The notes: generated by a model not told the origin, from the sequence alone. Numbered from the stretch's first letter, positions 1-10,552 are shown. The stretch is DNA of 64,000 nt from an uncultured Bacteroides sp. (GCA_964458155.1 CAYWGP010000118.1:9810-73809); one strand, 5' to 3'. Translations and numbers: made by a program.

Positions 1-667
1 TCCAAATTCTTGCGTATTACCCGTTGAAACCAAACTGCCATGGGAACGTCTTGCAGCTTTGCCGGAAATGCTACAGACCACACACGGATCATTACACGAG
101 GGCTTAGAGATAGACCGGGCGGAATCCATCCTGATAAGGGGTGGTACGTCTTCCATTGGAATGGCTGCTCTGGCTCTGGCAAAAACCGCTGGCATGCACG
201 TTGGCACTACAACTCGAAATCCATCGAAGGTGAGCTTTCTCAAAGAAGCAGGTGCTGACGAGGTTTTGATTGATAATGGCGAGATTCATAAGCAGGTTAT
301 AGAGAATAAATTCGGACTTTATGATCGGGTTCTAGAACTTATCGGAACGACCACCTTGCTCGATTCGCTTCGTTGTGTTGGAAAGGGGGGTATTGTTTGT
401 ATGACCGGTATTCTAGGCGGAAAATGGACCTTGGACGACTTCCATCCGATGGGAGATATTCCGACAGCCGTTAAGTTAACCTCCTATAGTGGAGAAGCGT
501 CGAACCTAAGTATTGATCAGTTTCAGGAGTATCTTCGACTAATTGAGGAAGGGAAACTGGTTGTTGAAACCGGGCAGGTCTTTGAATTTGAAGAATTGAT
601 CCAGGCGCACAAATTAATGGATGAAAATCAAGCTGGTGGCAAAATAGTTGTCCTTGGTAAACAATGA
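1..667 (+). CDS. MDR-superfamily NAD(P)H:quinone oxidoreductase / Zn-type alcohol dehydrogenase, C-terminal ~220 aa (5' end outside window)
   Basis: The frame is open from base 2 (PNSCVLPVETKLPWERLAALPEML...), so the Met at 59 is internal. Rossmann-like 'ILIRGGTSSIGMAALALAK' and C-terminal 'AHKLMDENQAGGKIVV' match quinone-reductase-like MDR proteins. Confidence 0.8.
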   Translation, partial: PNSCVLPVETKLPWERLAALPEMLQTTHGSLHEGLEIDRAESILIRGGTSSIGMAALALAKTAGMHVGTTTRNPSKVSFLKEAGADEVLIDNGEIHKQVIENKFGLYDRVLELIGTTTLLDSLRCVGKGGIVCMTGILGGKWTLDDFHPMGDIPTAVKLTSYSGEASNLSIDQFQEYLRLIEEGKLVVETGQVFEFEELIQAHKLMDENQAGGKIVVLGKQ

Positions 668-719
668 GAACAACAATAGTAACCAACTAAATGCTATTAA
701 TCATTAATATAATGGAAAT

Positions 720-1130
720 ATGAAAGTAGAATTCGAAGTTTCTGATATCCTCTCAGCCACTCCAGAACAGATCTACGCTGCCTGGCTGGATTCCGGTGAG
801 CATTCTGAGATGACTGGCAGCCCTGCAAGGATTTCTTCCATAGTTGGAGGCAAATTTGATGCATGGGATGGATATATCAGTGGCACAAATCTGGAGTTGC
901 AGCCATCGAGCCGGATCCTCCAACTTTGGCGCACAAGCGAGTTTGAGGATTCTGACGAAGATTCTCTATTAGAAATTCTATTGGAAACGGTAGAGAACGG
1001 AACCATCATTAAAATCCAACATAGCCAACTTCCGGAGCATGGAATGCAATATCAGCAAGGTTGGAGGGATTCGTACTTCACCCCTATGAAAGCTTACTTT
1101 GAGACAAAATCAAAGGCGGGAGACGTTTAA
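720..1130 (+). CDS. SRPBCC / AHSA1-like (Activator of Hsp90 ATPase homolog 1-like) small protein
   Basis: 136 aa. 'TPEQIYAAWLDSGEHSEMTG' and 'GGKFDAWDGYISGTNLEL' match the typical AHSA1/SRPBCC pattern. Confidence 0.75.
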   Translation: MKVEFEVSDILSATPEQIYAAWLDSGEHSEMTGSPARISSIVGGKFDAWDGYISGTNLELQPSSRILQLWRTSEFEDSDEDSLLEILLETVENGTIIKIQHSQLPEHGMQYQQGWRDSYFTPMKAYFETKSKAGDV

Positions 1131-1173
1131 CAAGACACAAAAGCCAAGCGAAACACGTGTCACGTCCTTCGCT

Positions 1174-1224
1174 GAAAAGGCAAAGCCCGCGTCAGGTATA
1201 GCGGCTTAGTTCCACCTTTATATG
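1174..1224 (+). repeat. 3'-flank intergenic repeat, copy A
   Basis: gaaaaggcaaagcccgcgtcaggtatagcggcttagttccacctttatatg. It aligns with copies at 2713, 5003 and others. Potential stem AAGCC(C)GC / GCGGCTT. Confidence 0.8.
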
Positions 1225-1285
1225 TATTATATTTAATGGGCATTTGCGATGGAGCCTAAAATGGTTGTAACTAACAATAAGGTAT

Positions 1286-2161
1286 ATGATCCTGCATACA
1301 AAATTGCTGCATTTCTTTTTAAAAATATTTTATGCAAAAAAGATTGCGACAAGAAGTCTTCTAAAACCATCAAGGTCAAAAACATTCAAAATGCCTGTAA
1401 GCTTAAGAAAAGGATTGTTAAGCGATCAATTTTTAGTTAAAAATCGAAACGTAGTAACATTTGATCCCCGGAAACCATCGCTAAATAAGCATTTATTTTT
1501 TCTTCACGGGGGTGCATATGCAGCAGAAGCGAGACCGAGTCACTGGAGGGTGATAGAGCAATTGATAAAAAAAACATTTTTTAAGTTGAGTTTTATTGAT
1601 TATCCACTTGCCCCGGAGTATACTTACAAAGAATCACATGAAATGGTTTTCCAGGCATACACTAAATTGCTTGAAAAATATCCAAATGACGATTTCTATT
1701 TTGTAGGAGATTCAGCAGGTGGAGGATTTTGTTTGTCTTTCGCTCAATCTCTTCGCAATGTTCACTTCAAAAAAATGCCTGAAAAAATAGTCCTTCTTTC
1801 TCCATGGGTAGATATCTCAATGAGCAATCCTGAGATTAAGGAATTGGAAAAGAAGGATTTGCTTCTCAATCCAAAACAATTATTAATCTGTTCACAGAAT
1901 TTTGCAGGAGGTTTAGATTTAAAGAATCCAATAGTATCTCCGCTATATGGAGATATGGACGAACTAAACAGTATTGGTGTATTTGTAGGTACACACGAAA
2001 TTCTCCTCCCTGATTGCAGAATACTCAAAAGAAAGATTGAAAAATCCAACACTGGGATTTTCTATAAAGAGTATGAAGCCATGCAACATGATTGGATGAT
2101 ATTTCCAATAAAAGAACGCGAGATATTGTTGAATGATGTCGTTGAATTTGTAATGAATTAG
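1286..2161 (+). CDS. alpha/beta-hydrolase fold-3 esterase/lipase (HSL-type)
   Basis: Oxyanion motif 'HGGAY', nucleophile elbow 'GDSAGG', and a C-terminal His in 'AMQHDW'. The start is uncertain; an alternative ATG lies at 1391. Confidence 0.8.
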   Translation: MILHTKLLHFFLKIFYAKKIATRSLLKPSRSKTFKMPVSLRKGLLSDQFLVKNRNVVTFDPRKPSLNKHLFFLHGGAYAAEARPSHWRVIEQLIKKTFFKLSFIDYPLAPEYTYKESHEMVFQAYTKLLEKYPNDDFYFVGDSAGGGFCLSFAQSLRNVHFKKMPEKIVLLSPWVDISMSNPEIKELEKKDLLLNPKQLLICSQNFAGGLDLKNPIVSPLYGDMDELNSIGVFVGTHEILLPDCRILKRKIEKSNTGIFYKEYEAMQHDWMIFPIKEREILLNDVVEFVMN

Positions 2162-2170
2162 TTGATAGTC

Positions 2171-2227
2171 CAAAGCCAAAAACCTGACAAGATCTAATAT
2201 CTGCGCTTAGGTCTTTTGCCGTATTTG
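2171..2227 (+). repeat. 3'-flank intergenic repeat, copy B (degenerate)
   Basis: caaagcc...ctgcgcttaggtcttttgccgtatttg resembles caaagccc...gcggcttagttccacctttatatg of copy A. Confidence 0.45.
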
Positions 2228-2255
2228 AATTTAATAAAAGCATAAAAAAAATCAC

Positions 2256-2711
2256 ATGAAAAAGAAATGGTTTGAGGGATCTTGTATAATCGGATGCCGT
2301 TTTCAAAGTTTGGAACACTCAATCGAGGATCATGGTAAATTCTATGAAGGTGTTGTAAGTTGCATGTCAGGTATTTCAAGCGTTGAACTCCTTGAACAAG
2401 GATCGGATTATTTGATCATCGAGACCAACGAAGGCATAATGAAGAGAACAAATCTCAAGAAAAGTATCAAGCAGGATATTGTTGTGGTAGAGTATGATGA
2501 AGAATATAAGGCTGGGAAAATGGTCACAACTCACTCGCATTTCTTAGATGAATTCACATCAAACGAGGATGGAATAAAACTTATGACCACAATAAGTGAT
2601 GTGAGAGCATCTGGAGTGTTGGGCTTAATATACAGATTGTTTGGCAGTTCGAATATTGGGAAGGCTGTATTGAATTCTCATAAGACATATTTGGAAGCGC
2701 TGGAAGACTAA
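2256..2711 (+). CDS. hypothetical protein (possibly SRPBCC/CoxG-like fold)
   Basis: 151-aa ORF with coding-like composition. Resemblance to small SRPBCC proteins is loose, and no catalytic motif was recognised. Confidence 0.4.
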   Translation: MKKKWFEGSCIIGCRFQSLEHSIEDHGKFYEGVVSCMSGISSVELLEQGSDYLIIETNEGIMKRTNLKKSIKQDIVVVEYDEEYKAGKMVTTHSHFLDEFTSNEDGIKLMTTISDVRASGVLGLIYRLFGSSNIGKAVLNSHKTYLEALED

Positions 2712-2712
2712 T

Positions 2713-2764
2713 GGAAAGGCAAAGCCCGCGCCAGGCCAAGGCGGCTTGGTTCCCCCGTTCTATG
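2713..2764 (+). repeat. 3'-flank intergenic repeat, copy C
   Basis: ggaaaggcaaagcccgcgccaggccaaggcggcttggttcccccgttctatg starts 1 nt after the stop codon. It shares an identical 21-mer cccgcgccaggccaaggcggc with copy F. Confidence 0.85.
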
Positions 2765-2874
2765 CTAATGAATAACTTATTGCAACACCAGGAGGTAAGT
2801 TTATTTATAAGTTGGCAGCAATAAAAAGACATATTTGATTTTTTCTGCCTGCGTATTATCAAAACTATTAAACA

Positions 2875-3825
2875 ATGGGGAGATTTATCAAAAAAGTAAC
2901 ACATCCTCCAAGACTCACCTTCCTGAGAATATTCAGAGCAATGTGGAGGCAAAAATCCAAGAATCCAAAATGTCCTGATCAACCAAGATTGGATGGGAAA
3001 TTGGCACTTGTGACCGGTGGCAATCATGGAATAGGTTTCGAAACCACCCAAGGACTGGCCGAAAGGGGTGCTGAAGTGATTATTCTTGCCAGAAATGAAG
3101 CCAAATCCAGAAAGGCAATGGAGAAAACCCAGGAGGAGATACGTAATAAAGTCCATTTTATTCTCATGGATCTTGGCGACATTGAAAGTATTTTAACTGC
3201 TGCGAAGGAAATTGCTCAGGTATTTCCTGAACGAAAAATTGATCTTGTGGTGGCAAATGCAGGAATATCACCGAGTGGATATTCAACATCAGTGCAAGGC
3301 TATGAAATAGCCTTTGCCGTTAATGTTTTAGGACATCATGTACTTTTTAAGGCTTGTCTTGATCAATTGCTGCTAAAGGATAATGCACAAATAATATCGC
3401 TGGCTGGAGATATATATATCCTGGGAAAGAAAAGCAGACCAGATTACTTTTCCAAAGAAGATAGTGTTACAAATTCATACTGCCAGAGCAAACTCGGATG
3501 CATGTGGTGGGCATTTAAATTATCTGAAAAGTATCCAAAGTTTTCAATCAATATAGTGCATCCTGGTGTAGTAGCAACCGGGTTAGGTGGCGAAACCACT
3601 GGAGCTTTCAGGCAATTGTTAAGAAAAAATCTAATGTTATCTCCAGGAGAAGGTGCTCAAACTACCCTAATTTGTGCCACACAGCCAGATGTAGTTAATG
3701 GAGCTTATTATCACAATACCATGGGCCAGATTATTCTACCCATTGATGATCCCGCAGTAAATTCTGAAAATGCTGAAGAATTCTGGAATATACTGGAAGA
3801 CATTGCTTCGAAATATATGGCATAG
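2875..3825 (+). CDS. short-chain dehydrogenase/reductase (SDR) family oxidoreductase
   Basis: 'ALVTGGNHGIGFE' (TGxxxGIG), 'ANAG', and catalytic YxxxK as 'YCQSK'. Confidence 0.85.
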   Translation: MGRFIKKVTHPPRLTFLRIFRAMWRQKSKNPKCPDQPRLDGKLALVTGGNHGIGFETTQGLAERGAEVIILARNEAKSRKAMEKTQEEIRNKVHFILMDLGDIESILTAAKEIAQVFPERKIDLVVANAGISPSGYSTSVQGYEIAFAVNVLGHHVLFKACLDQLLLKDNAQIISLAGDIYILGKKSRPDYFSKEDSVTNSYCQSKLGCMWWAFKLSEKYPKFSINIVHPGVVATGLGGETTGAFRQLLRKNLMLSPGEGAQTTLICATQPDVVNGAYYHNTMGQIILPIDDPAVNSENAEEFWNILEDIASKYMA

Positions 3826-3862
3826 AACAAATCACTAAAACAGACACCAGGGTCCCCTGAAT

Positions 3863-3908
3863 GCAAAGGAGGTGGGGTGGTGGGCGCCACTTGGTTCAAG
3901 GGTTATAT
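3863..3908 (+). repeat. 3'-flank intergenic repeat, copy E (degenerate)
   Basis: gcaaaggaggtggggtggtgggcgccacttggttcaagggttatatg. The 3' half aligns with ggcggcttggttcccccgttctatg. Confidence 0.4.
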
Positions 3909-3969
3909 GAAGGGGAGGAAAGATCACTCGATAAATATGTAAATAGTACGCTATAATAAAGTTGAAACG

Positions 3970-4965
3970 ATGAAGCCCTTCTGTTTACTCCTGGTATTGT
4001 TTCTTTCCTGTCAGCGCGGGACTCCTGATAATTCAGCATTAATGACAAACGATGAAGTATTTCAGTATGCTCATCAATTTGTTCGATGGTTTTATAATGA
4101 TCAGCTAGATTCTCTTAGCCAGCATATAAATAATAAAAACTTCACCCTGGATGATCTAAAGAGATTCAAAGTCCAAGCCGAGGATCAACTCGGGAAGGAG
4201 GAAGAGTTACTTTTTGATAGAAATTTCATATATGTAAAGGACGGCAAAACTAATTATGAGAACATTAGAGATTGCAGGTTTTCTAGATCAGCACGTCCAG
4301 TTCGTATTCTTTTCGGATTCGATAATCAGCAGACTATCTACAAGTTTGAAGTAAGCATACTTCCCAGGGAGGCACACACCACACACATTAATTATCAAAC
4401 AAAAACGAAACTCAAATTACCCTTTGAAGGTGAATGGTATGTCGCTTCAGGAGGAAGGACAGTTTTGCACAACGGGCATGCGATTTCTGCAAACCAAAGA
4501 TTTGCATACGACTTTTTGATTAAGAAAGAAGGATATACCTTTAGGAATGAAGGCAAATACAATAAGGACTATTTTTGTTTTGAAAAAAATGTAGTTGCTC
4601 CCGGCAAGGGAAGGGTCTTTAAAGTGATTAACCATATAGAAGAAAACGAGGTAGGTAAGATGGGAGAGGGAGATGGTAATACGGTCGTTATCGATCATGG
4701 CAATGGAGAATACTCTGTAATAGCTCATTTCAAAAAGGGTTCGATAGTGGTTGAAGTTGGGGATGAAGTGAATAGTGGACAGTTTTTAGGCCTATGTGGC
4801 AATAGTGGCCGGTCATTTCAGCCCCATATTCACTACCATTTACAAACAATGCCAGAGAATGGCCCGGGAGAAGGACTACCACTCCAATTTGCATCTTATA
4901 AATTAGATAGTATAAGCCATGAGAATAGCGAGCCAACCTGGGGCCAACGAATCAGAAATCAGTAG
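3970..4965 (+). CDS. M23 (LytM-type) family metallopeptidase, secreted/lipoprotein
   Basis: Signal with 'LFLSCQ'. 'VIDHGNGEYSVIAHF' and 'GNSGRSFQPHIHYH' (HxH) are M23 metal-ligand motifs. Confidence 0.8.
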   Translation: MKPFCLLLVLFLSCQRGTPDNSALMTNDEVFQYAHQFVRWFYNDQLDSLSQHINNKNFTLDDLKRFKVQAEDQLGKEEELLFDRNFIYVKDGKTNYENIRDCRFSRSARPVRILFGFDNQQTIYKFEVSILPREAHTTHINYQTKTKLKLPFEGEWYVASGGRTVLHNGHAISANQRFAYDFLIKKEGYTFRNEGKYNKDYFCFEKNVVAPGKGRVFKVINHIEENEVGKMGEGDGNTVVIDHGNGEYSVIAHFKKGSIVVEVGDEVNSGQFLGLCGNSGRSFQPHIHYHLQTMPENGPGEGLPLQFASYKLDSISHENSEPTWGQRIRNQ

Positions 4966-5002
4966 TTTGAAAAGATGTCGCTGCGATGCCGGGTCGTATG
5001 CA

Positions 5003-5054
5003 GGACAGGTAAATCCCGCGCCAGGCCAAGGCGGCATAGTTACACCGTTCCGCG
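5003..5054 (+). repeat. 3'-flank intergenic repeat, copy F
   Basis: ggacaggtaaatcccgcgccaggccaaggcggcatagttacaccgttccgcg. Confidence 0.8.
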
Positions 5055-5089
5055 ATCAATACTAAGGGTTTATTAAAACAGAGAAAAGG

Positions 5090-6628
5090 ATGAATCTAAC
5101 AATCAATTTAATAATTACCTGTTTGAGTATATCGCTTATTTCATGCACAAGCAATCAAGCAAAGGATGTCGCAGAAAAACCTAATATAATTTTCATCATG
5201 TCGGATGACCACGCTTATCAGGCGATAAGTGCCTACAATTCAGGTTTAGTCAAAACACCAAATATAGATAAGATTGCAGATCAGGGTATTAAGTTTAATA
5301 ATGCCTTTGTTACTAATTCGATCTGTGCCCCAAGTCGAGCAGTGATTCTAAGCGGGAAATTCTCACATTTGAATGGCGTTCCGGGCAACGGTCAGGTGTT
5401 TGATGGAAATCAGCAAACATTCCCGAAAATCCTGCAACAAAATGGTTATCAAACAGCAATGATTGGCAAGTGGCATTTAAAAAGCCATCCAACAGGATTC
5501 GATTACTGGAACGTATTACCCGGTCAGGGTGACTATTACAATCCTGATTTCATCAAGCAGGGAAAGGATACTACTTATAATGGATACGTAACTGATATTA
5601 TCACAGAGCTTTCTATTGACTGGTTAAAAAGAAGGGATAAGAACGAACCATTTTGTTTACTGATGCACCATAAGGCGCCACATCGAAGTTGGATGCCGGC
5701 CTTAAAGAACCTGGAATTATTTGATGATGCATATTTTCCACTGCCCGAAAATTTTTATGACGAATATGAAGGTAAAGAAGCCCTAAAAGTGCAAATGCTA
5801 ACAGTAAAAGATCACATGGATGTACGCATGGATTTCAAGATTCCGTGTGATACTTGCGATACAGTTTCGGTTAACTCCTGGGCACCAGGTGAGTATTGGA
5901 GGAGACTTGATCGTTTGTCACCTGATGAACGGCAAAAATGGGATGAGGCCTACAAAAAGGAAGAAAAGGAGTTTTATGAAGTAAAAGATGAGGAACCGGA
6001 ATACGACCTTTGGAAATTCAGGCGATATATGGAGGATTATCTGCGCTGTATTGTTTCGGTGGATGAAAGCGTTGGACAGGTCCTTGAATATCTTAAGGAA
6101 AACGGACTGGAAGAAAATACCATTATCGTTTATACTTCTGATCAAGGATTTTTTCTAGGTGAGCATGGATTGTTCGACAAACGATTTATGTATGAAGAAG
6201 CGATGAGATCTCCGCTGATGATTCGGTATCCAAAAGAGATAATGGGTAATTTACAGACCGGGCTGCTGACTCAGAATCTGGATATTGCTCCCACAATTCT
6301 TGATGTGGCCGGAATTTCTATTCCAGATGATATGCAGGGAATATCATTGCGTGATATTTGGCTAAACAGTGATACTCCATGGAGAGATGCAATCTACTAT
6401 CATTACTACGAGAAAGGATTTGGAGCTACCCCTCATTATGGAGTCCGTACGGATCGCTACAAGTTAATTCACTTTTACGATGTAGTTGATTCATGGGAAT
6501 TTTATGATCTTGAAACAGATCCAAATGAAATGAAAAATTTATACAATGATCCCGGGTATGAACAACAAATTAAAGAGTTAAGCGACAAATTGGTTGAACT
6601 GCAAGATTTATATATGGATACAATCTGA
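5090..6628 (+). CDS. Cys-type sulfatase (S1 family), lipoprotein signal
   Basis: 'LISCTS' lipobox, 'IIFIMSDDH', formylglycine motif 'CAPSRAVILSG', 'GKWHL'. Confidence 0.9.
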   Translation: MNLTINLIITCLSISLISCTSNQAKDVAEKPNIIFIMSDDHAYQAISAYNSGLVKTPNIDKIADQGIKFNNAFVTNSICAPSRAVILSGKFSHLNGVPGNGQVFDGNQQTFPKILQQNGYQTAMIGKWHLKSHPTGFDYWNVLPGQGDYYNPDFIKQGKDTTYNGYVTDIITELSIDWLKRRDKNEPFCLLMHHKAPHRSWMPALKNLELFDDAYFPLPENFYDEYEGKEALKVQMLTVKDHMDVRMDFKIPCDTCDTVSVNSWAPGEYWRRLDRLSPDERQKWDEAYKKEEKEFYEVKDEEPEYDLWKFRRYMEDYLRCIVSVDESVGQVLEYLKENGLEENTIIVYTSDQGFFLGEHGLFDKRFMYEEAMRSPLMIRYPKEIMGNLQTGLLTQNLDIAPTILDVAGISIPDDMQGISLRDIWLNSDTPWRDAIYYHYYEKGFGATPHYGVRTDRYKLIHFYDVVDSWEFYDLETDPNEMKNLYNDPGYEQQIKELSDKLVELQDLYMDTI

Positions 6629-6669
6629 TAATTTTGAATAGATTCAAATCAAAAACAAATCACCTTAGT

Positions 6670-7218
6670 ATGAAAAAAACTATCATTTTATTATTAATCA
6701 TTTCTGCTTGTAATTCAACTGAGCAGCAAGTCAAAGATGTGGTACCCCTTTTTTCTTATGATGTCGAAGAAAGAATAAGAGAGCTGGGAATAGAATTAGG
6801 AGAACCTTACAAACCTGTTGCCAACTATGTGAGCTCTGTTAGAAGTGGGAATTTAGTATTTATGTCTGGTGCTGGCCCACAAATGTCTGACGGGGAATAC
6901 CTTACAGGTAAGGTAGGGAGTGATCTAACTTTAGAAGAGGGCTATGAGGCAGCCAGGTTAACCGGTATTGTGCTGTTATCAGCCTTAAAGGATCAGGTTG
7001 GAGATCTAAATAAAGTAGAAAGGATAATTAAAGTAAAAGGCATGGTAAACGCAGATCCCTCTTTCACACAGCATCCTGCTGTAATAAATGGAATCTCAGA
7101 CTTGATGGTTGAAATATTTGGTGAAAGAGGAAAGCATGCACGTGCCGCTGTAGGTATGGGATCGCTTCCAATGAATATTGCGTGTGAAATTGAAATGATA
7201 GTACAAGTTAGCGAATGA
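6670..7218 (+). CDS. RidA/YjgF/TdcF-family protein with N-terminal lipoprotein signal
   Basis: ATG at 6670 gives 'MKKTIILLLIISACNS'. The body ('GNLVFMSGAGP', 'ARAAVGMGSLPMNIACEIEMIV') matches the RidA-like fold. Confidence 0.75.
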   Translation: MKKTIILLLIISACNSTEQQVKDVVPLFSYDVEERIRELGIELGEPYKPVANYVSSVRSGNLVFMSGAGPQMSDGEYLTGKVGSDLTLEEGYEAARLTGIVLLSALKDQVGDLNKVERIIKVKGMVNADPSFTQHPAVINGISDLMVEIFGERGKHARAAVGMGSLPMNIACEIEMIVQVSE

Positions 7219-7233
7219 TTATTCTCTACAATG

Positions 7234-7262
7234 CTACGGCGGTTTAGTTCCGCAGTTCAACA
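7234..7262 (+). repeat. 3'-flank intergenic repeat, copy G (3' half only)
   Basis: ctacggcggtttagttccgcagttcaaca aligns with gcggcttagttccacctttatatg. Confidence 0.5.
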
Positions 7263-7277
7263 TTAACAAAGAAGAAG

Positions 7278-8606
7278 GTGCCAGATAGACGACATTTGCT
7301 AGTTTCAATTTGTGCCGCTGCCCTGGTGGCTGGCATAGCCTTGCTTCTTTTCAGGGCTGGTCAGGAAAGAAAGCCAAATATTATTATCATCCTTGCTGAT
7401 GATTACGGATATGGAGATGCTGGGTGCTACGGAAGCAAGCGATTCCTTACGCCCCACATTGATGCCCTGGCAGCCGGAGGGCTGCGTTTTACGGATTTCC
7501 ATTCCAATGGAGCGGTCTGTAGTCCGACGCGGGCAGCATTGCTGACCGGCCGGTATCAACAGCGTACGGGTATCACCGGTGTGGTCACAGCCGCAGGTCA
7601 CCGTCACACCGGGCTGGATATAGGAGAGACCACCTTTGCCGATATTTTGAAAACCGCCGGCTATACTACAGCCCTGTTTGGGAAGTGGCATCTCGGCTAC
7701 CTTCCGGATTATAATCCCATTCACCAGGGTTTCGATGAGTTTGTAGGATACGTGAGCGGTAATATAGACTACCATGCTCATCTCGATCAAACAGGCATGG
7801 AGGATTGGTGGAAACAGGACGAATTGAATCCGGAGTGCGGATATACGACAGATCTTATTACAGACCATGGAGTTGACTTTATCCGGCGCCACAGTGAGCA
7901 TCCCTTTCTGTTGTATATTGCTCATGAAGCACCACACTATCCTTACCAGGGCCGCAATGATCCACCGCGCTATACCCGGGATGATGGCAGGACCGAGGAT
8001 CCGGTCACACTGGAGGTTTATAAAGAAATGATTGAGGTAATGGATGAAAATGTGGGTCGGATCCATCAAGCTCTTATAGATGCAGAGCTGATCGATAACA
8101 CACTCATCTTTTTTTTCTCGGACAATGGACCCTCAGCACCCGGATCGGCCGGATCACTACGGGGGCAGAAAGGGCAGATTTGGGAAGGCGGACATCGGGT
8201 TCCGGCAATTGCCTACTGGCCAGGGAAGATTGAGGCAGGACGAGTGTCGGATCTGACTGCTATGGGCGCTGATTTACTGCCAACCATGGCGGCTATTAGC
8301 GGCGCAGTGTTAGCCAGAAGCCTCAGGTTGGATGGTATTAATCTCCTGCCACACCTGATCGAAAACAAGCAGCCAGCACCCAGGCCTCTTTTCTGGGCAT
8401 ATAAAAATCAATTGGCCATCAGGCAGAGTGATTTCAAATTGATTACCGATATTTCCTTTTCCGATACTTTATTGTATAATTTGAAAATTGACCCCGGAGA
8501 AAAGAATAATATAGCGGCACAACATCCGGATTTGGTTCAGGAACTTTTAAGATTACTGATAGCCTGGCAAACAGATGTGACAAAAGATGTAAAGAAACGA
8601 ACATGA
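7278..8606 (+). CDS. arylsulfatase (Cys-type, S1 family)
   Basis: 'IIIILADDYGYGD', FGly motif 'CSPTRAALLTGR', 'GKWHLG'. GTG start per the track. 4-nt overlap (ATGA) with the next gene. Confidence 0.9.
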   Translation: MPDRRHLLVSICAAALVAGIALLLFRAGQERKPNIIIILADDYGYGDAGCYGSKRFLTPHIDALAAGGLRFTDFHSNGAVCSPTRAALLTGRYQQRTGITGVVTAAGHRHTGLDIGETTFADILKTAGYTTALFGKWHLGYLPDYNPIHQGFDEFVGYVSGNIDYHAHLDQTGMEDWWKQDELNPECGYTTDLITDHGVDFIRRHSEHPFLLYIAHEAPHYPYQGRNDPPRYTRDDGRTEDPVTLEVYKEMIEVMDENVGRIHQALIDAELIDNTLIFFFSDNGPSAPGSAGSLRGQKGQIWEGGHRVPAIAYWPGKIEAGRVSDLTAMGADLLPTMAAISGAVLARSLRLDGINLLPHLIENKQPAPRPLFWAYKNQLAIRQSDFKLITDISFSDTLLYNLKIDPGEKNNIAAQHPDLVQELLRLLIAWQTDVTKDVKKRT

Positions 8607-10552
8607 AAAAACTATTTATAGGCATTGTCTTTACTATTGCTGCGATCAGCATTTATGCTCAGGAATACTACCTGTCATCACCAGACGGATTCCTGAGGGC
8701 AAAAATCTCAATCCATTCTGATGCCAGTGTGGAACTTTCAAAACGGAATGAGCTTATATTGAATCTGGATGAAATTGATTTGCTGGCAGCTGATGATCGA
8801 TTGGAAGGAATGAAAATAAAGAAGTCCACCACTCAGTCTGTAAGTAAAACTGTTATTCCTGTAATCAGAGAAAAGAGTGCCAGTTATATTGAAAATTATA
8901 ACGAGCTGTCCATTGATTTTAAATCGAATAAAGGACTTACTTTCAGACTTTATAATGAAGGTTTAGCCTACCGGTTCACGACCTCGGCAAAAGACAGCAT
9001 GACCATTAATAATGAAAGCCTGAGCATCCAACTCCTTGAAAATGATTCAACACGCTATCAGTCATCAACATCATTCAATTCATCCTACGAAACGCCATAT
9101 GAGCATGATCGCATTGGCGACATGACCCCGGGCAAGCAATGTAATTTGCCTTTACTTGCAGAAAAGTATAATGGCCCTTTGCTTATGATTACCGAGTCTG
9201 ATCTTTACGATTATCCGGGATTGTGGCTGGGGAACAGGGGAAGTGCCGTTTTAGAAGGAATGCACCCTCCTTATCCAAAAACATATAATTATTCAGGTAA
9301 TATATACGGGCATGGTCAAATTCTGGAAACCTATGACTTCATTGCCAGGGTGAAGGGTGCTAGAACCTATCCATGGAGGATTTTTGCAGTTGCGGACAAT
9401 GAGGAAGAACTGGTACAGAATGATATGGTTTACCTTCTGGCAAGCCCAAGTGAGTTGGACGATGTATCGTGGATCAAGCCGGGTGTGGTGATGTTTGACT
9501 GGTGGGCTAAAAAATACATATATGGAGTAGACTTCAAATCGGGTATAAACACCGAAACGGCCAAGTACTTCATTGATTTTTGTGCAGCCCAGGGCTTCAG
9601 GTATTTTTTGTTTGATGATGGCTGGTGTCCCAAGGATGACCTGTTGTCGGTAAATCCTGAACTGGATATGGAAGCAGTTACTTCATATGCAGCTGAGAAG
9701 AATGTGGATATCATGCTCTGGGTCATATGGCATGCACTTGAGAGGCAATGGGATGAAGCCTTTGACCAGTTTGAAAAGTGGGGCATCAAAGGCATCAAGA
9801 TGGATTTCATGAACAGGGATGATCAGAAGATGGTCCGGTTTTATGAATCTGTTGTCGATAAGGCAGCCGAAAAAAAAATGGTGGTGAATTTTCATGGTGC
9901 CTACAAGCCCTGTGGCCTGAGAAAGAAATACCCCAACTTACTTACAAGGGAGGCACTTATTGAGTTTGAATACAACGGATGGACCGATTACGTAACACCT
10001 GAGCACCATAATCTACTTCCATACATTCGCATGTTTACAGGTCCGATGGATTACATTCCTGGTACTACAAGAAACTCAACCAAAACCAGCTTTCGAAAAT
10101 CAGGCAACTATCCTATGGGACAGGGAACAAGAGCTCATGCAATGGCTTTGTTTGTCATTCTAAATAGCCCAATGACTATGCTTCCAGACTCACCTTCTGA
10201 TTATTACCGGGAGCAAGAGTGTACCGATTTTCTTGCCGGTATCCCTCTTGAGTGGGATGAAACAAGGCTGTTGAAAGGGAGTATCGGAAAATACACTATC
10301 CTGGGGAGACGGGCTGGTGATGAATGGTATGTGGGTGCAATTACAGACTGGGATACCAGGACATTTAAATTGAATTCACATTTTCTTAAGGGGGGTAAGT
10401 ACCAGGTAGAAATCATTAGTGATGGAATTAATGCCGATACCCGGGCCGAAGATTATATACGATCTACTTTGTATATTCAAAAAGGTGATGATATTGAAAT
10501 AGCTATGGTTTCCGGTGGCGGATGGTTAGCAAGGTTCACTCCTGTGGAATAA
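8603..10552 (+). CDS. glycoside hydrolase family 97 (alpha-glucosidase/alpha-galactosidase type)
   Basis: 649 aa with a signal peptide. 'LLMITESDLYDYPGLWL' and 'WGIKGIKMDFMNRDDQKMV' resemble the GH97 N-terminal and catalytic regions. The size is typical. Confidence 0.75.
   Translation: MKKLFIGIVFTIAAISIYAQEYYLSSPDGFLRAKISIHSDASVELSKRNELILNLDEIDLLAADDRLEGMKIKKSTTQSVSKTVIPVIREKSASYIENYNELSIDFKSNKGLTFRLYNEGLAYRFTTSAKDSMTINNESLSIQLLENDSTRYQSSTSFNSSYETPYEHDRIGDMTPGKQCNLPLLAEKYNGPLLMITESDLYDYPGLWLGNRGSAVLEGMHPPYPKTYNYSGNIYGHGQILETYDFIARVKGARTYPWRIFAVADNEEELVQNDMVYLLASPSELDDVSWIKPGVVMFDWWAKKYIYGVDFKSGINTETAKYFIDFCAAQGFRYFLFDDGWCPKDDLLSVNPELDMEAVTSYAAEKNVDIMLWVIWHALERQWDEAFDQFEKWGIKGIKMDFMNRDDQKMVRFYESVVDKAAEKKMVVNFHGAYKPCGLRKKYPNLLTREALIEFEYNGWTDYVTPEHHNLLPYIRMFTGPMDYIPGTTRNSTKTSFRKSGNYPMGQGTRAHAMALFVILNSPMTMLPDSPSDYYREQECTDFLAGIPLEWDETRLLKGSIGKYTILGRRAGDEWYVGAITDWDTRTFKLNSHFLKGGKYQVEIISDGINADTRAEDYIRSTLYIQKGDDIEIAMVSGGGWLARFTPVE

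Follow-up and report, generated by a model that had tools for sequence, protein, structure and literature searches.

Probable decayed integron cassette array in an uncultured Bacteroides sp., with sites of a Bacteroidota attC family

In integrons, the integrase IntI recombines the folded bottom strand of an attC hairpin with attI or with another attC, the crossover taking place between the G and the TT of the attC box R'. After that crossover, the bases 3' of the G in R' belong to the next cassette and so complement the R'' box of that cassette; the mechanism therefore leads to one site per gene, a single orientation and cassette starts complementary to the R'' at the cassette's own end. The closest described systems to the locus analysed here are the attC sites of class 1 integrons (59-base elements, such as those of aadA1, aadA2, qacL and cmlA1) and the sedentary chromosomal integrons together with CALIN, which reportedly denotes, after Cury et al. 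2016, clusters of attC sites without an integrase. The locus occupies positions 1-7261 of a 64,000-nt stretch of DNA from an uncultured Bacteroides sp. (hereafter the window, with positions counted from its first letter) and is very probably the distal part of an integron cassette array carried on a Bacteroidota chromosome, with attC sites that have since decayed.

Integrons have been recorded sparsely in this phylum. For the Bacteroidetes, only In0 elements were known until IntegronFinder 2.0 added one complete integron, in Salinibacter ruber (PMC9024848), and Ghaly et al. include the Bacteroidota among the phyla with integrons (PMC9668308). The taxon-specific attC models of Ghaly et al. 2021 cover 11 taxa, none of them Bacteroidota (PMC8352920); as in those taxon-specific families, sequence and structure are conserved within the taxon in the family described below, of which no description was found in the literature that could be searched.

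The array in the window shares with sedentary chromosomal integrons and CALIN a chromosomal position, a single orientation and mostly single-gene units of unrelated function. All genes between 59 and 7218 lie on the + strand, which agrees with a prediction made earlier from the sequence of the window alone, which described a co-oriented array of unrelated genes, each followed by a copy of one ~50-nt repeat. Further likenesses are attC sites that resemble each other within a lineage, toxin-antitoxin cassettes of the MNT/HepT type (in a sister array) and the lack of an integrase within reach on the visible, downstream side of the array. In contrast to these systems, most sites of the window are partial or mutated, and the host phylum is reported to be integron-poor.

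The extent of the repeat was established from other genomes. One genome per GTDB species was scanned with the pattern CCCGCGN{6,16}GCGGCWTRGTTMCNCC, which gave 100 blocks of 8 kb (L numbers below). The low-GC matches came nearly all from Bacteroidota metagenome-assembled genomes (MAGs), often with several matches on the same strand of a block and with blocks adjacent on one contig, and the 114 low-GC matches in the fetched loci had the common layout R''-AAATCACT-L''...L'-GTTCCACC-R'. When 85 nt of upstream flank were printed with them, the conserved element was seen to be ~100 nt long, in the order xxxxAAC (R''), AAATCACT, AAAGCCGACCG (L''), a variable middle, GGCGGCTTA (L'), GTTCCACC and GTTxxxx (R'). 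Members of 59, 89, 98, 102, 118, 132-135, 143-144 and ~150 nt carry the same boxes throughout. Thus, the ~50-nt unit of the original prediction, which corresponds to the distal stretch of the variable middle, L', the adjoining spacer and R', was too short: the real unit measures ~100 nt and, in sites A and E (letters as in Table 1), starts within or directly at the stop codon of the gene before it. For several of the sister loci, the underlying MAG assemblies are fragmented or prone to errors.

This family was identified as canonical attC by its layout, by the cassette signature, by its fold, by adjacent integrases and by cross-recognition of class 1 sites. Regarding the signature, 56 pairs of consecutive elements were compared: R' of one element was the reverse complement of R'' of the following one at each of the five variable positions in 28 of them and at four of the five in 11 more, where random pairing expects 3.4 perfect pairs; within one element the figure was 7 of 83. 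The bottom strand of the consensus folds at -31.8 kcal/mol (z = -7.0) into an R stem, an asymmetric internal loop of 5/4 nt, an L stem whose 3' arm has two single bulged T and a long imperfect terminal stem. Among 29 diverse members, 87.7% of the cells were paired, compared to 30-42% with the partners slid; the helix of L box plus terminal stem was 92.8% paired, and the AAC/GTT pairs were kept in 27-28 of the 29.

An integrase gene lies upstream of the first attC, in divergent orientation, at 4415-5263 (-) of locus L053; its product matches TIGR02249 ('integron integrase') with 302 bits (cutoff 265) and shares 42.5% identity with IntI1 across 99% of its length. Homologues in the same position were found by tblastn in MAG contig CAVQMZ010000001.1 and in loci L006 and L086, making four sister arrays in all. 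In addition, a structure-aware covariance model built from family members only (R1) was run with filters off on the class 1 integron of pS53-2 (estX-HAD-family hydrolase-aadA2-cmlA1-aadA1-qacL), where it detected five of the six attC sites, namely those after aadA2, aadA1, qacL, cmlA1 and the HAD-family hydrolase gene, at the correct gene ends and on the correct strand (E = 2e-8 to 1e-5).

Compared to class 1 attC sites, the family has the same order of R'', spacer, L'', variable stem, L', spacer and R', the same conserved AAC/GTT triplets and the same position directly 3' of the cassette gene. The L box, which reads TAAGCCGCCG...CGGTCGGCTT on the bottom strand, is nearly the same and likewise has single bulged bases in its 3' arm; the second of these bases is T in the family and G in the aadA-type sites of locus L112. 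The sites differ in length, ~60-70 nt in class 1 and ~102 nt in the commonest form of the family (59-150 nt in others), and the terminal stem, variable in class 1 attC, is strongly conserved in sequence across genomes in the family. The earlier view that the repeat lacks the canonical attC core and would represent an undescribed type of site was therefore mistaken, and arose because only the 3' half of the site had been seen; the full element has the AAC/GTT triplets, the bulged L box and the variable terminal stem. What looked like a new cassette-like repeat is thus resolved as a known mechanism, and the locus genuinely belongs to a known class of element rather than representing a new type of site.

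That the sites of the window belong to this family, which is highly conserved across Bacteroidota MAGs, was shown with an nhmmer profile of 56 elements from other genomes, from which the window sequence was excluded; separate 5' and 3' modules were also searched. Five of the six predicted copies (A, C, E, F and G) matched the non-window profile or model above chance. Copy B is backed by position: it could not be told from chance by sequence statistics, no profile or model giving significance, and its positions correspond one by one to the 3' end (CTTAGTTCCACCGTTATATG) of an intact attC located 5' of the homologue of the 151-aa gene in MAG contig CAVVVN010000003.1. Copies 1174-1221, 2713-2760 and 5003-5050 form one direct-repeat family, and the 21-mer CCCGCGCCAGGCCAAGGCGGC said to be common to C and F does occur exactly twice, at 2725 and 5015, against 0.01 expected. 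The predicted absence of the motif from the other ~57 kb of the window also held, since neither motif half recurs there and the family nhmmer profiles and the covariance model found no match. One R1 match at 7842-7974 (E = 0.14), within a second sulfatase gene, was taken as chance.

The confinement of the copies to 1-7261 bears on the alternative that they are a dispersed repeat, either of the repetitive extragenic palindrome (REP) or of the miniature inverted-repeat (MITE) type, a shared terminator or an RNA-stability hairpin that happens to lie 3' of these genes. The element does sit at gene 3' ends and has hairpin potential, and its middle part is unusually conserved across genomes; even so, we consider such an origin hardly credible. 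Copies are clustered rather than dispersed, both in the window and in the large MAG contigs (11 copies within 24 kb plus one elsewhere in the 1.95 Mb of CAVVVN010000003.1), no T-run follows the hairpin, and the complementarity between neighbouring R' and R'', the adjacent integron integrases and the detection of class 1 sites would all be left without explanation. No Rfam family was found in the whole window at the gathering threshold.

The boundaries of the units provide evidence for cassettes within the window itself. The R' of site C, GTTCTATG (2757-2764), is the exact reverse complement of the R'' of site E, CATAGAAC (3821-3828); with the crossover after the G of GTTCTATG, this exact match makes the short-chain dehydrogenase (SDR) gene a true cassette, extending over 2758-3902. 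It is the only unit of the window in which such complementarity was found. The 151-aa protein encoded upstream of site C is 80% identical (tblastn) to the product of a single-gene cassette in the array of CAVVVN010000003.1, where intact attC sites lie on both sides with matching R' and R'' (GTTATATG / CATATAAC) and the neighbouring genes are unrelated to those of the window. Together with the integrases beside the sister arrays, these results uphold the original idea of a mobile cassette array of the integron/CALIN type. Each unit would have arrived, according to the known mechanism, as a promoterless circular cassette inserted by an integron integrase.

The array continues upstream of the window start. 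One contig obtained by scanning metagenomes with the ADH fragment (L105) is 99% identical to positions 1-685 of the window, reaches 649 nt further upstream and holds at 205-303 another site of the family, Z (E = 1.4e-8), between the end of a cysteine-synthase-like gene and the start of the alcohol dehydrogenase (ADH) gene whose 3' part opens the window. The ADH gene is therefore a cassette gene with its upstream attC just before the window start, and in a relative (L106, 89% amino acid identity) the ADH gene also has a site before it and different genes after it.

As regards the state of the sites, every one of them at this locus lacks at least one essential feature. AAC and GTT are present together only in E; A has AAC and TTT, C, F and G have GTT only, and Z has GAC and CTT where AAC and GTT are expected. 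In A, the R'' GTTTAAC (1125-1131) overlaps the TAA stop and is followed by a spacer (1132-1139) and L'' (1140-1150), and on the 3' side L' (1201-1208) and a spacer (1209-1216) precede an R' of sequence TTTATAT (1217-1223), in which the conserved G of GTT is mutated to T. Site E, of which the original prediction covered the 3' part only (3863-3908), has an R'' that contains the TAG stop of the SDR gene, a spacer AAATCACT identical to the family consensus and an R' GTTATATG (3902-3909), its L box and middle being eroded. Site C keeps part of the variable stem, L', the spacer and R', and comparison with the intact homologous cassette indicates that R'', L'' and ~85 nt of 3' untranslated region were deleted; in the alignment with CAVVVN010000003.1, ~140 nt after the stop of the 151-aa gene, that is, the 3' untranslated region plus the 5' arm of the site, are missing from the window. 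The conserved part of F is its 3' end, and by eye (4950-4995 vs. the consensus) a much-diverged 5' half may start near 4950 (AAATCAGT at 4958-4965), with no AAC left. Site G consists of L', spacer and R' GTTCAAC (7255-7261) and marks the distal end of the array.

The predicted folds point in the same direction. The L box is weakened in A and no longer pairs in E; C, F and G each have a single arm of it, and because the 5' arm is absent, the hairpin cannot form in these three sites. When folded in situ, sites of the family had a median of -20.8 kcal/mol (range -30.6 to -12.8), compared to -15.4 for A, -7.5 for E, -10.5 for F, -9.5 for C, -9.2 for G and -7.6 for B, with z-scores near zero or positive (0.2 for E), and the fold of A was not the attC fold. 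Folding of the 50-nt repeat with short flanks gave weak, non-significant structures, a misleading result because the unit is longer and the copies of the window are decayed. On these grounds, the array looks fossilised: the sites are predicted not to be recombinogenic, and most likely the cassettes are frozen in place as fixed low-GC accessory genes beside the core chromosome. After normal delivery by IntI, the sites would have been eroded through mutation of crossover triplets and deletion of 5' arms while the cargo genes were kept.

The opposite view, that the array is still active, with divergent sites as tolerated variants and an intact intI just upstream of the window, has some observations in its favour: recognition of attC is mainly structural and tolerates sequence change, E keeps AAC, GTT and an exact spacer and has an R'' that matches the R' of C perfectly, A scores 69 bits with the family model, and cassettes continue upstream of the window. 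We nevertheless find it improbable, as A lacks the crossover G of GTT, both triplets are missing from Z, the absence of the 5' arm leaves C, F and G unable to form a hairpin, the L box of E cannot pair, only the fold energy of A lies within the family range, the z-scores are near zero or positive, and near-identical contigs from several samples show one fixed order. An active state could apply to A or E only, and is unlikely even for them given the lost crossover G of the former and the lost L box of the latter.

Several points weigh against a decayed integron array, or at least limit how far that interpretation carries. None of the four integrase genes of the sister arrays is demonstrably intact, one having an internal deletion and one a frameshift (possibly from an assembly error), and two being cut by block edges. 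Membership in attC rests on the family model of this analysis and on its cross-matches, and the inactivity of the sites is deduced from sequence and folding. R'' of A and R' of Z agree at 6 of 10 positions only, so that the ADH-AHSA1 unit is not cleanly delimited. The gene order at the locus is the same in five near-identical metagenome contigs, which fits a frozen array and gives no direct sign of past mobility here. Finally, neither an integrase nor an attI was seen for this genome: the window opens within the array, and contigs covering its first positions are short; within the 64-kb window, tblastn found no IntI homologue. The array may be a complete integron, in which an intI gene (a tyrosine recombinase with the IntI-specific insertion) would adjoin it together with attI and Pc, or a CALIN. 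For the latter, which takes two or more attC sites at distances below 4 kb and no integrase nearby, A and E are full-length model matches 2.6 kb apart, with integrase absence seen on the downstream side only. As most of the sites are partial or mutated, a standard attC scan would probably call only these two.

Beyond the locus, two readings can be put forward jointly and tentatively, the odds being rather against the pair: that the sites represent an undescribed attC family spread over the Bacteroidota, with a long, sequence-conserved terminal stem in at least three modular versions, and that the window shows the domestication of cassettes in progress, in which sites may be lost as the crossover triplets acquire point mutations and 5' arms are deleted, the genes being retained. 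The conserved terminal stem could have a second function, for instance in host-factor binding or cassette expression. If such a family existed, it would point to a large pool of integrons in a phylum considered poor in them. The window itself provides a picture of array decay in which esterase, SDR, M23 peptidase and sulfatase/RidA genes persist as low-GC accessory genes beside the core chromosome. The locus is otherwise of modest interest, for its attC family from the Bacteroidota and as a case of site erosion; with the ~100-nt consensus and its model, metagenome bins of this phylum, in which integrons are reported to be rare, could be screened for integron arrays. By blastn, no copy of the family consensus was found in 72,556 plasmids, so that at this sensitivity the family is not seen on known mobile integrons.

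Table 1. Genes and attC sites of the array, in window positions
Feature	Position	Strand	Evidence or remarks
Zinc-type alcohol dehydrogenase/quinone oxidoreductase (ADH), 3' part	59-667	+	Pfam ADH_zinc_N; gene part in the window taken as 1-667
AHSA1/SRPBCC gene	720-1130	+	Pfam PF08327
attC A, full length	1124-1224	+	nhmmer 1125-1222, E = 3e-21; R1 69.3 bits, E = 2e-17
Esterase (Abhydrolase_3), cassette gene	1286-2161	+	Pfam; GC 34.5% vs. 47.4% for the chromosome
B, probable badly eroded attC remnant	2171-2227	+	AAAGCC ... GCGCTTAGGTC ... CCGTAT; position only
151-aa hypothetical, cassette gene	2256-2711	+	no Pfam match
attC C, 3' half only	2714-2764	+	nhmmer 2714-2763, E = 8e-10, profile positions 52-101
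Short-chain dehydrogenase (SDR), cassette gene	2875-3825	+	Pfam adh_short; cassette 2758-3902
attC E, full length	3821-3909	+	R1 26.3 bits, E = 7e-5; 5' module nhmmer 3822-3845, E = 3.5e-4
M23 peptidase, cassette gene	3970-4965	+	Pfam PF01551
attC F, 3' 57 nt	4995-5054	+	nhmmer 4995-5051, E = 2e-10, profile positions 43-99; R' GTTCCGC from 5047
Sulfatase	5090-6628	+	Pfam; GC 39%
Secreted YjgF/RidA-family gene	6634-7218	+	Pfam; GC 38.5%
attC G, last 30 nt only	7231-7261	+	nhmmer 7231-7260, E = 6.5e-4; 3' module, E = 3e-3

The genes and sites of the array are listed in Table 1. The last unit is possibly a two-gene cassette of ~2.2 kb with the sulfatase and RidA genes (5090..7218). At the other end, no site was detected by the nhmmer profiles or the covariance model in the gap between the ADH and AHSA1 genes (668-719); the AHSA1 gene either forms one cassette with the ADH gene or is a cassette of its own whose upstream site was lost. 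Looking up the AHSA1 protein returned contigs of 1.4-2.6 kb only. No resistance or virulence genes were found among the array cargo, and no health relevance was seen.

The array differs from its surroundings in base composition, with 39.8% GC in 1-7262 vs. 47.4% in the rest of the window, and the step falls exactly at the last attC remnant (7262/7263), where the RidA gene (38.5% GC) adjoins a sulfatase gene of 49.3% GC. Outside the array, the window carries ordinary chromosomal DNA of the Bacteroidota, including genes for SprA (type IX secretion system), IF-2, SufB and SufS. Directly 3' of the array, a second sulfatase gene and an overlapping GH97 glycosidase gene occupy 7278-10552 at chromosomal GC, so the sulfatase cassette adjoins a chromosomal sulfatase/glycan-degradation locus. 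Both sulfatase genes share a short DNA repeat (5444-5476 and 7659-7691) that corresponds to a conserved protein motif.

A number of minor observations concern the genes of this and related arrays. The 151-aa gene (2256-2711) appears as a conserved mobile cassette gene with no assigned function, its homologue being located in an unrelated Bacteroidales MAG (CAVVVN010000003.1, within L029, the block 960001-968000). The gene before site Z (L105 2-187) ends like a cysteine synthase (PALP). Nearly all database matches to its 61-aa tail (P0001-P0120) were 'cysteine synthase A' fragments of 56-107 aa, and in the two contexts inspected these were frameshift pieces of other assemblies, not a family of small proteins; all that came back from the search with this tail were short pieces produced by frameshifts, in unrelated contexts where neither attC nor IntI was seen. 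In the sister array with the frameshifted intI (CAVQMZ010000001.1), the first cassettes, at 3214-3826 of L011, encode, as judged by eye from the translations, an MNT-like nucleotidyltransferase and a HepT/DUF86-like protein, together a toxin-antitoxin pair of a type often met in sedentary integrons.

Other observations concern the family sites themselves. The terminal stem is made up of a few conserved modules (e.g. in loci L029, L032, L065, L011/L084 and L081), very short forms occurring too. The commonest module contains ...GTGTCACGCCCTTTGCAGAAAAGGCAAAG..., the second ...GAGCTCATGAGTCACCGCAGGTGACGAATAACGGCAAAG... and the third ...GTGGCACGTACCTTGCAA...GGGTTGAATTCCAATGCAAAG..., the R and L boxes being the same in all; such sequence conservation is unusual for a part of the site that is normally variable. 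Near-consensus sites were also detected in bins labelled as SAR324, Peregrinibacteria, a Thermoplasmata archaeon and Calditrichia (L004, L058/L059, L061 and L067). The sequence of L058 recurs as part of a Bacteroidota bin (L093) from the same study, so misbinning probably explains some of these cases, and for others a spread of family sites across phyla is possible.

The scan pattern also matched high-GC genomes (Amycolatopsis, Acidobacteriota and others); these matches were regarded as chance or unrelated conserved sequence and were removed by GC content. One conserved high-GC sequence, CCCGCGGCGCGCTGCGGCATGGTTCCTCC, unrelated to attC, accounts for matches in about a dozen Amycolatopsis genomes (L005, L017, L042, L045, L056, L060, L072, L075, L076, L087 and L091), and on the reverse strand it resembles a ribosome-binding site followed by a start codon.

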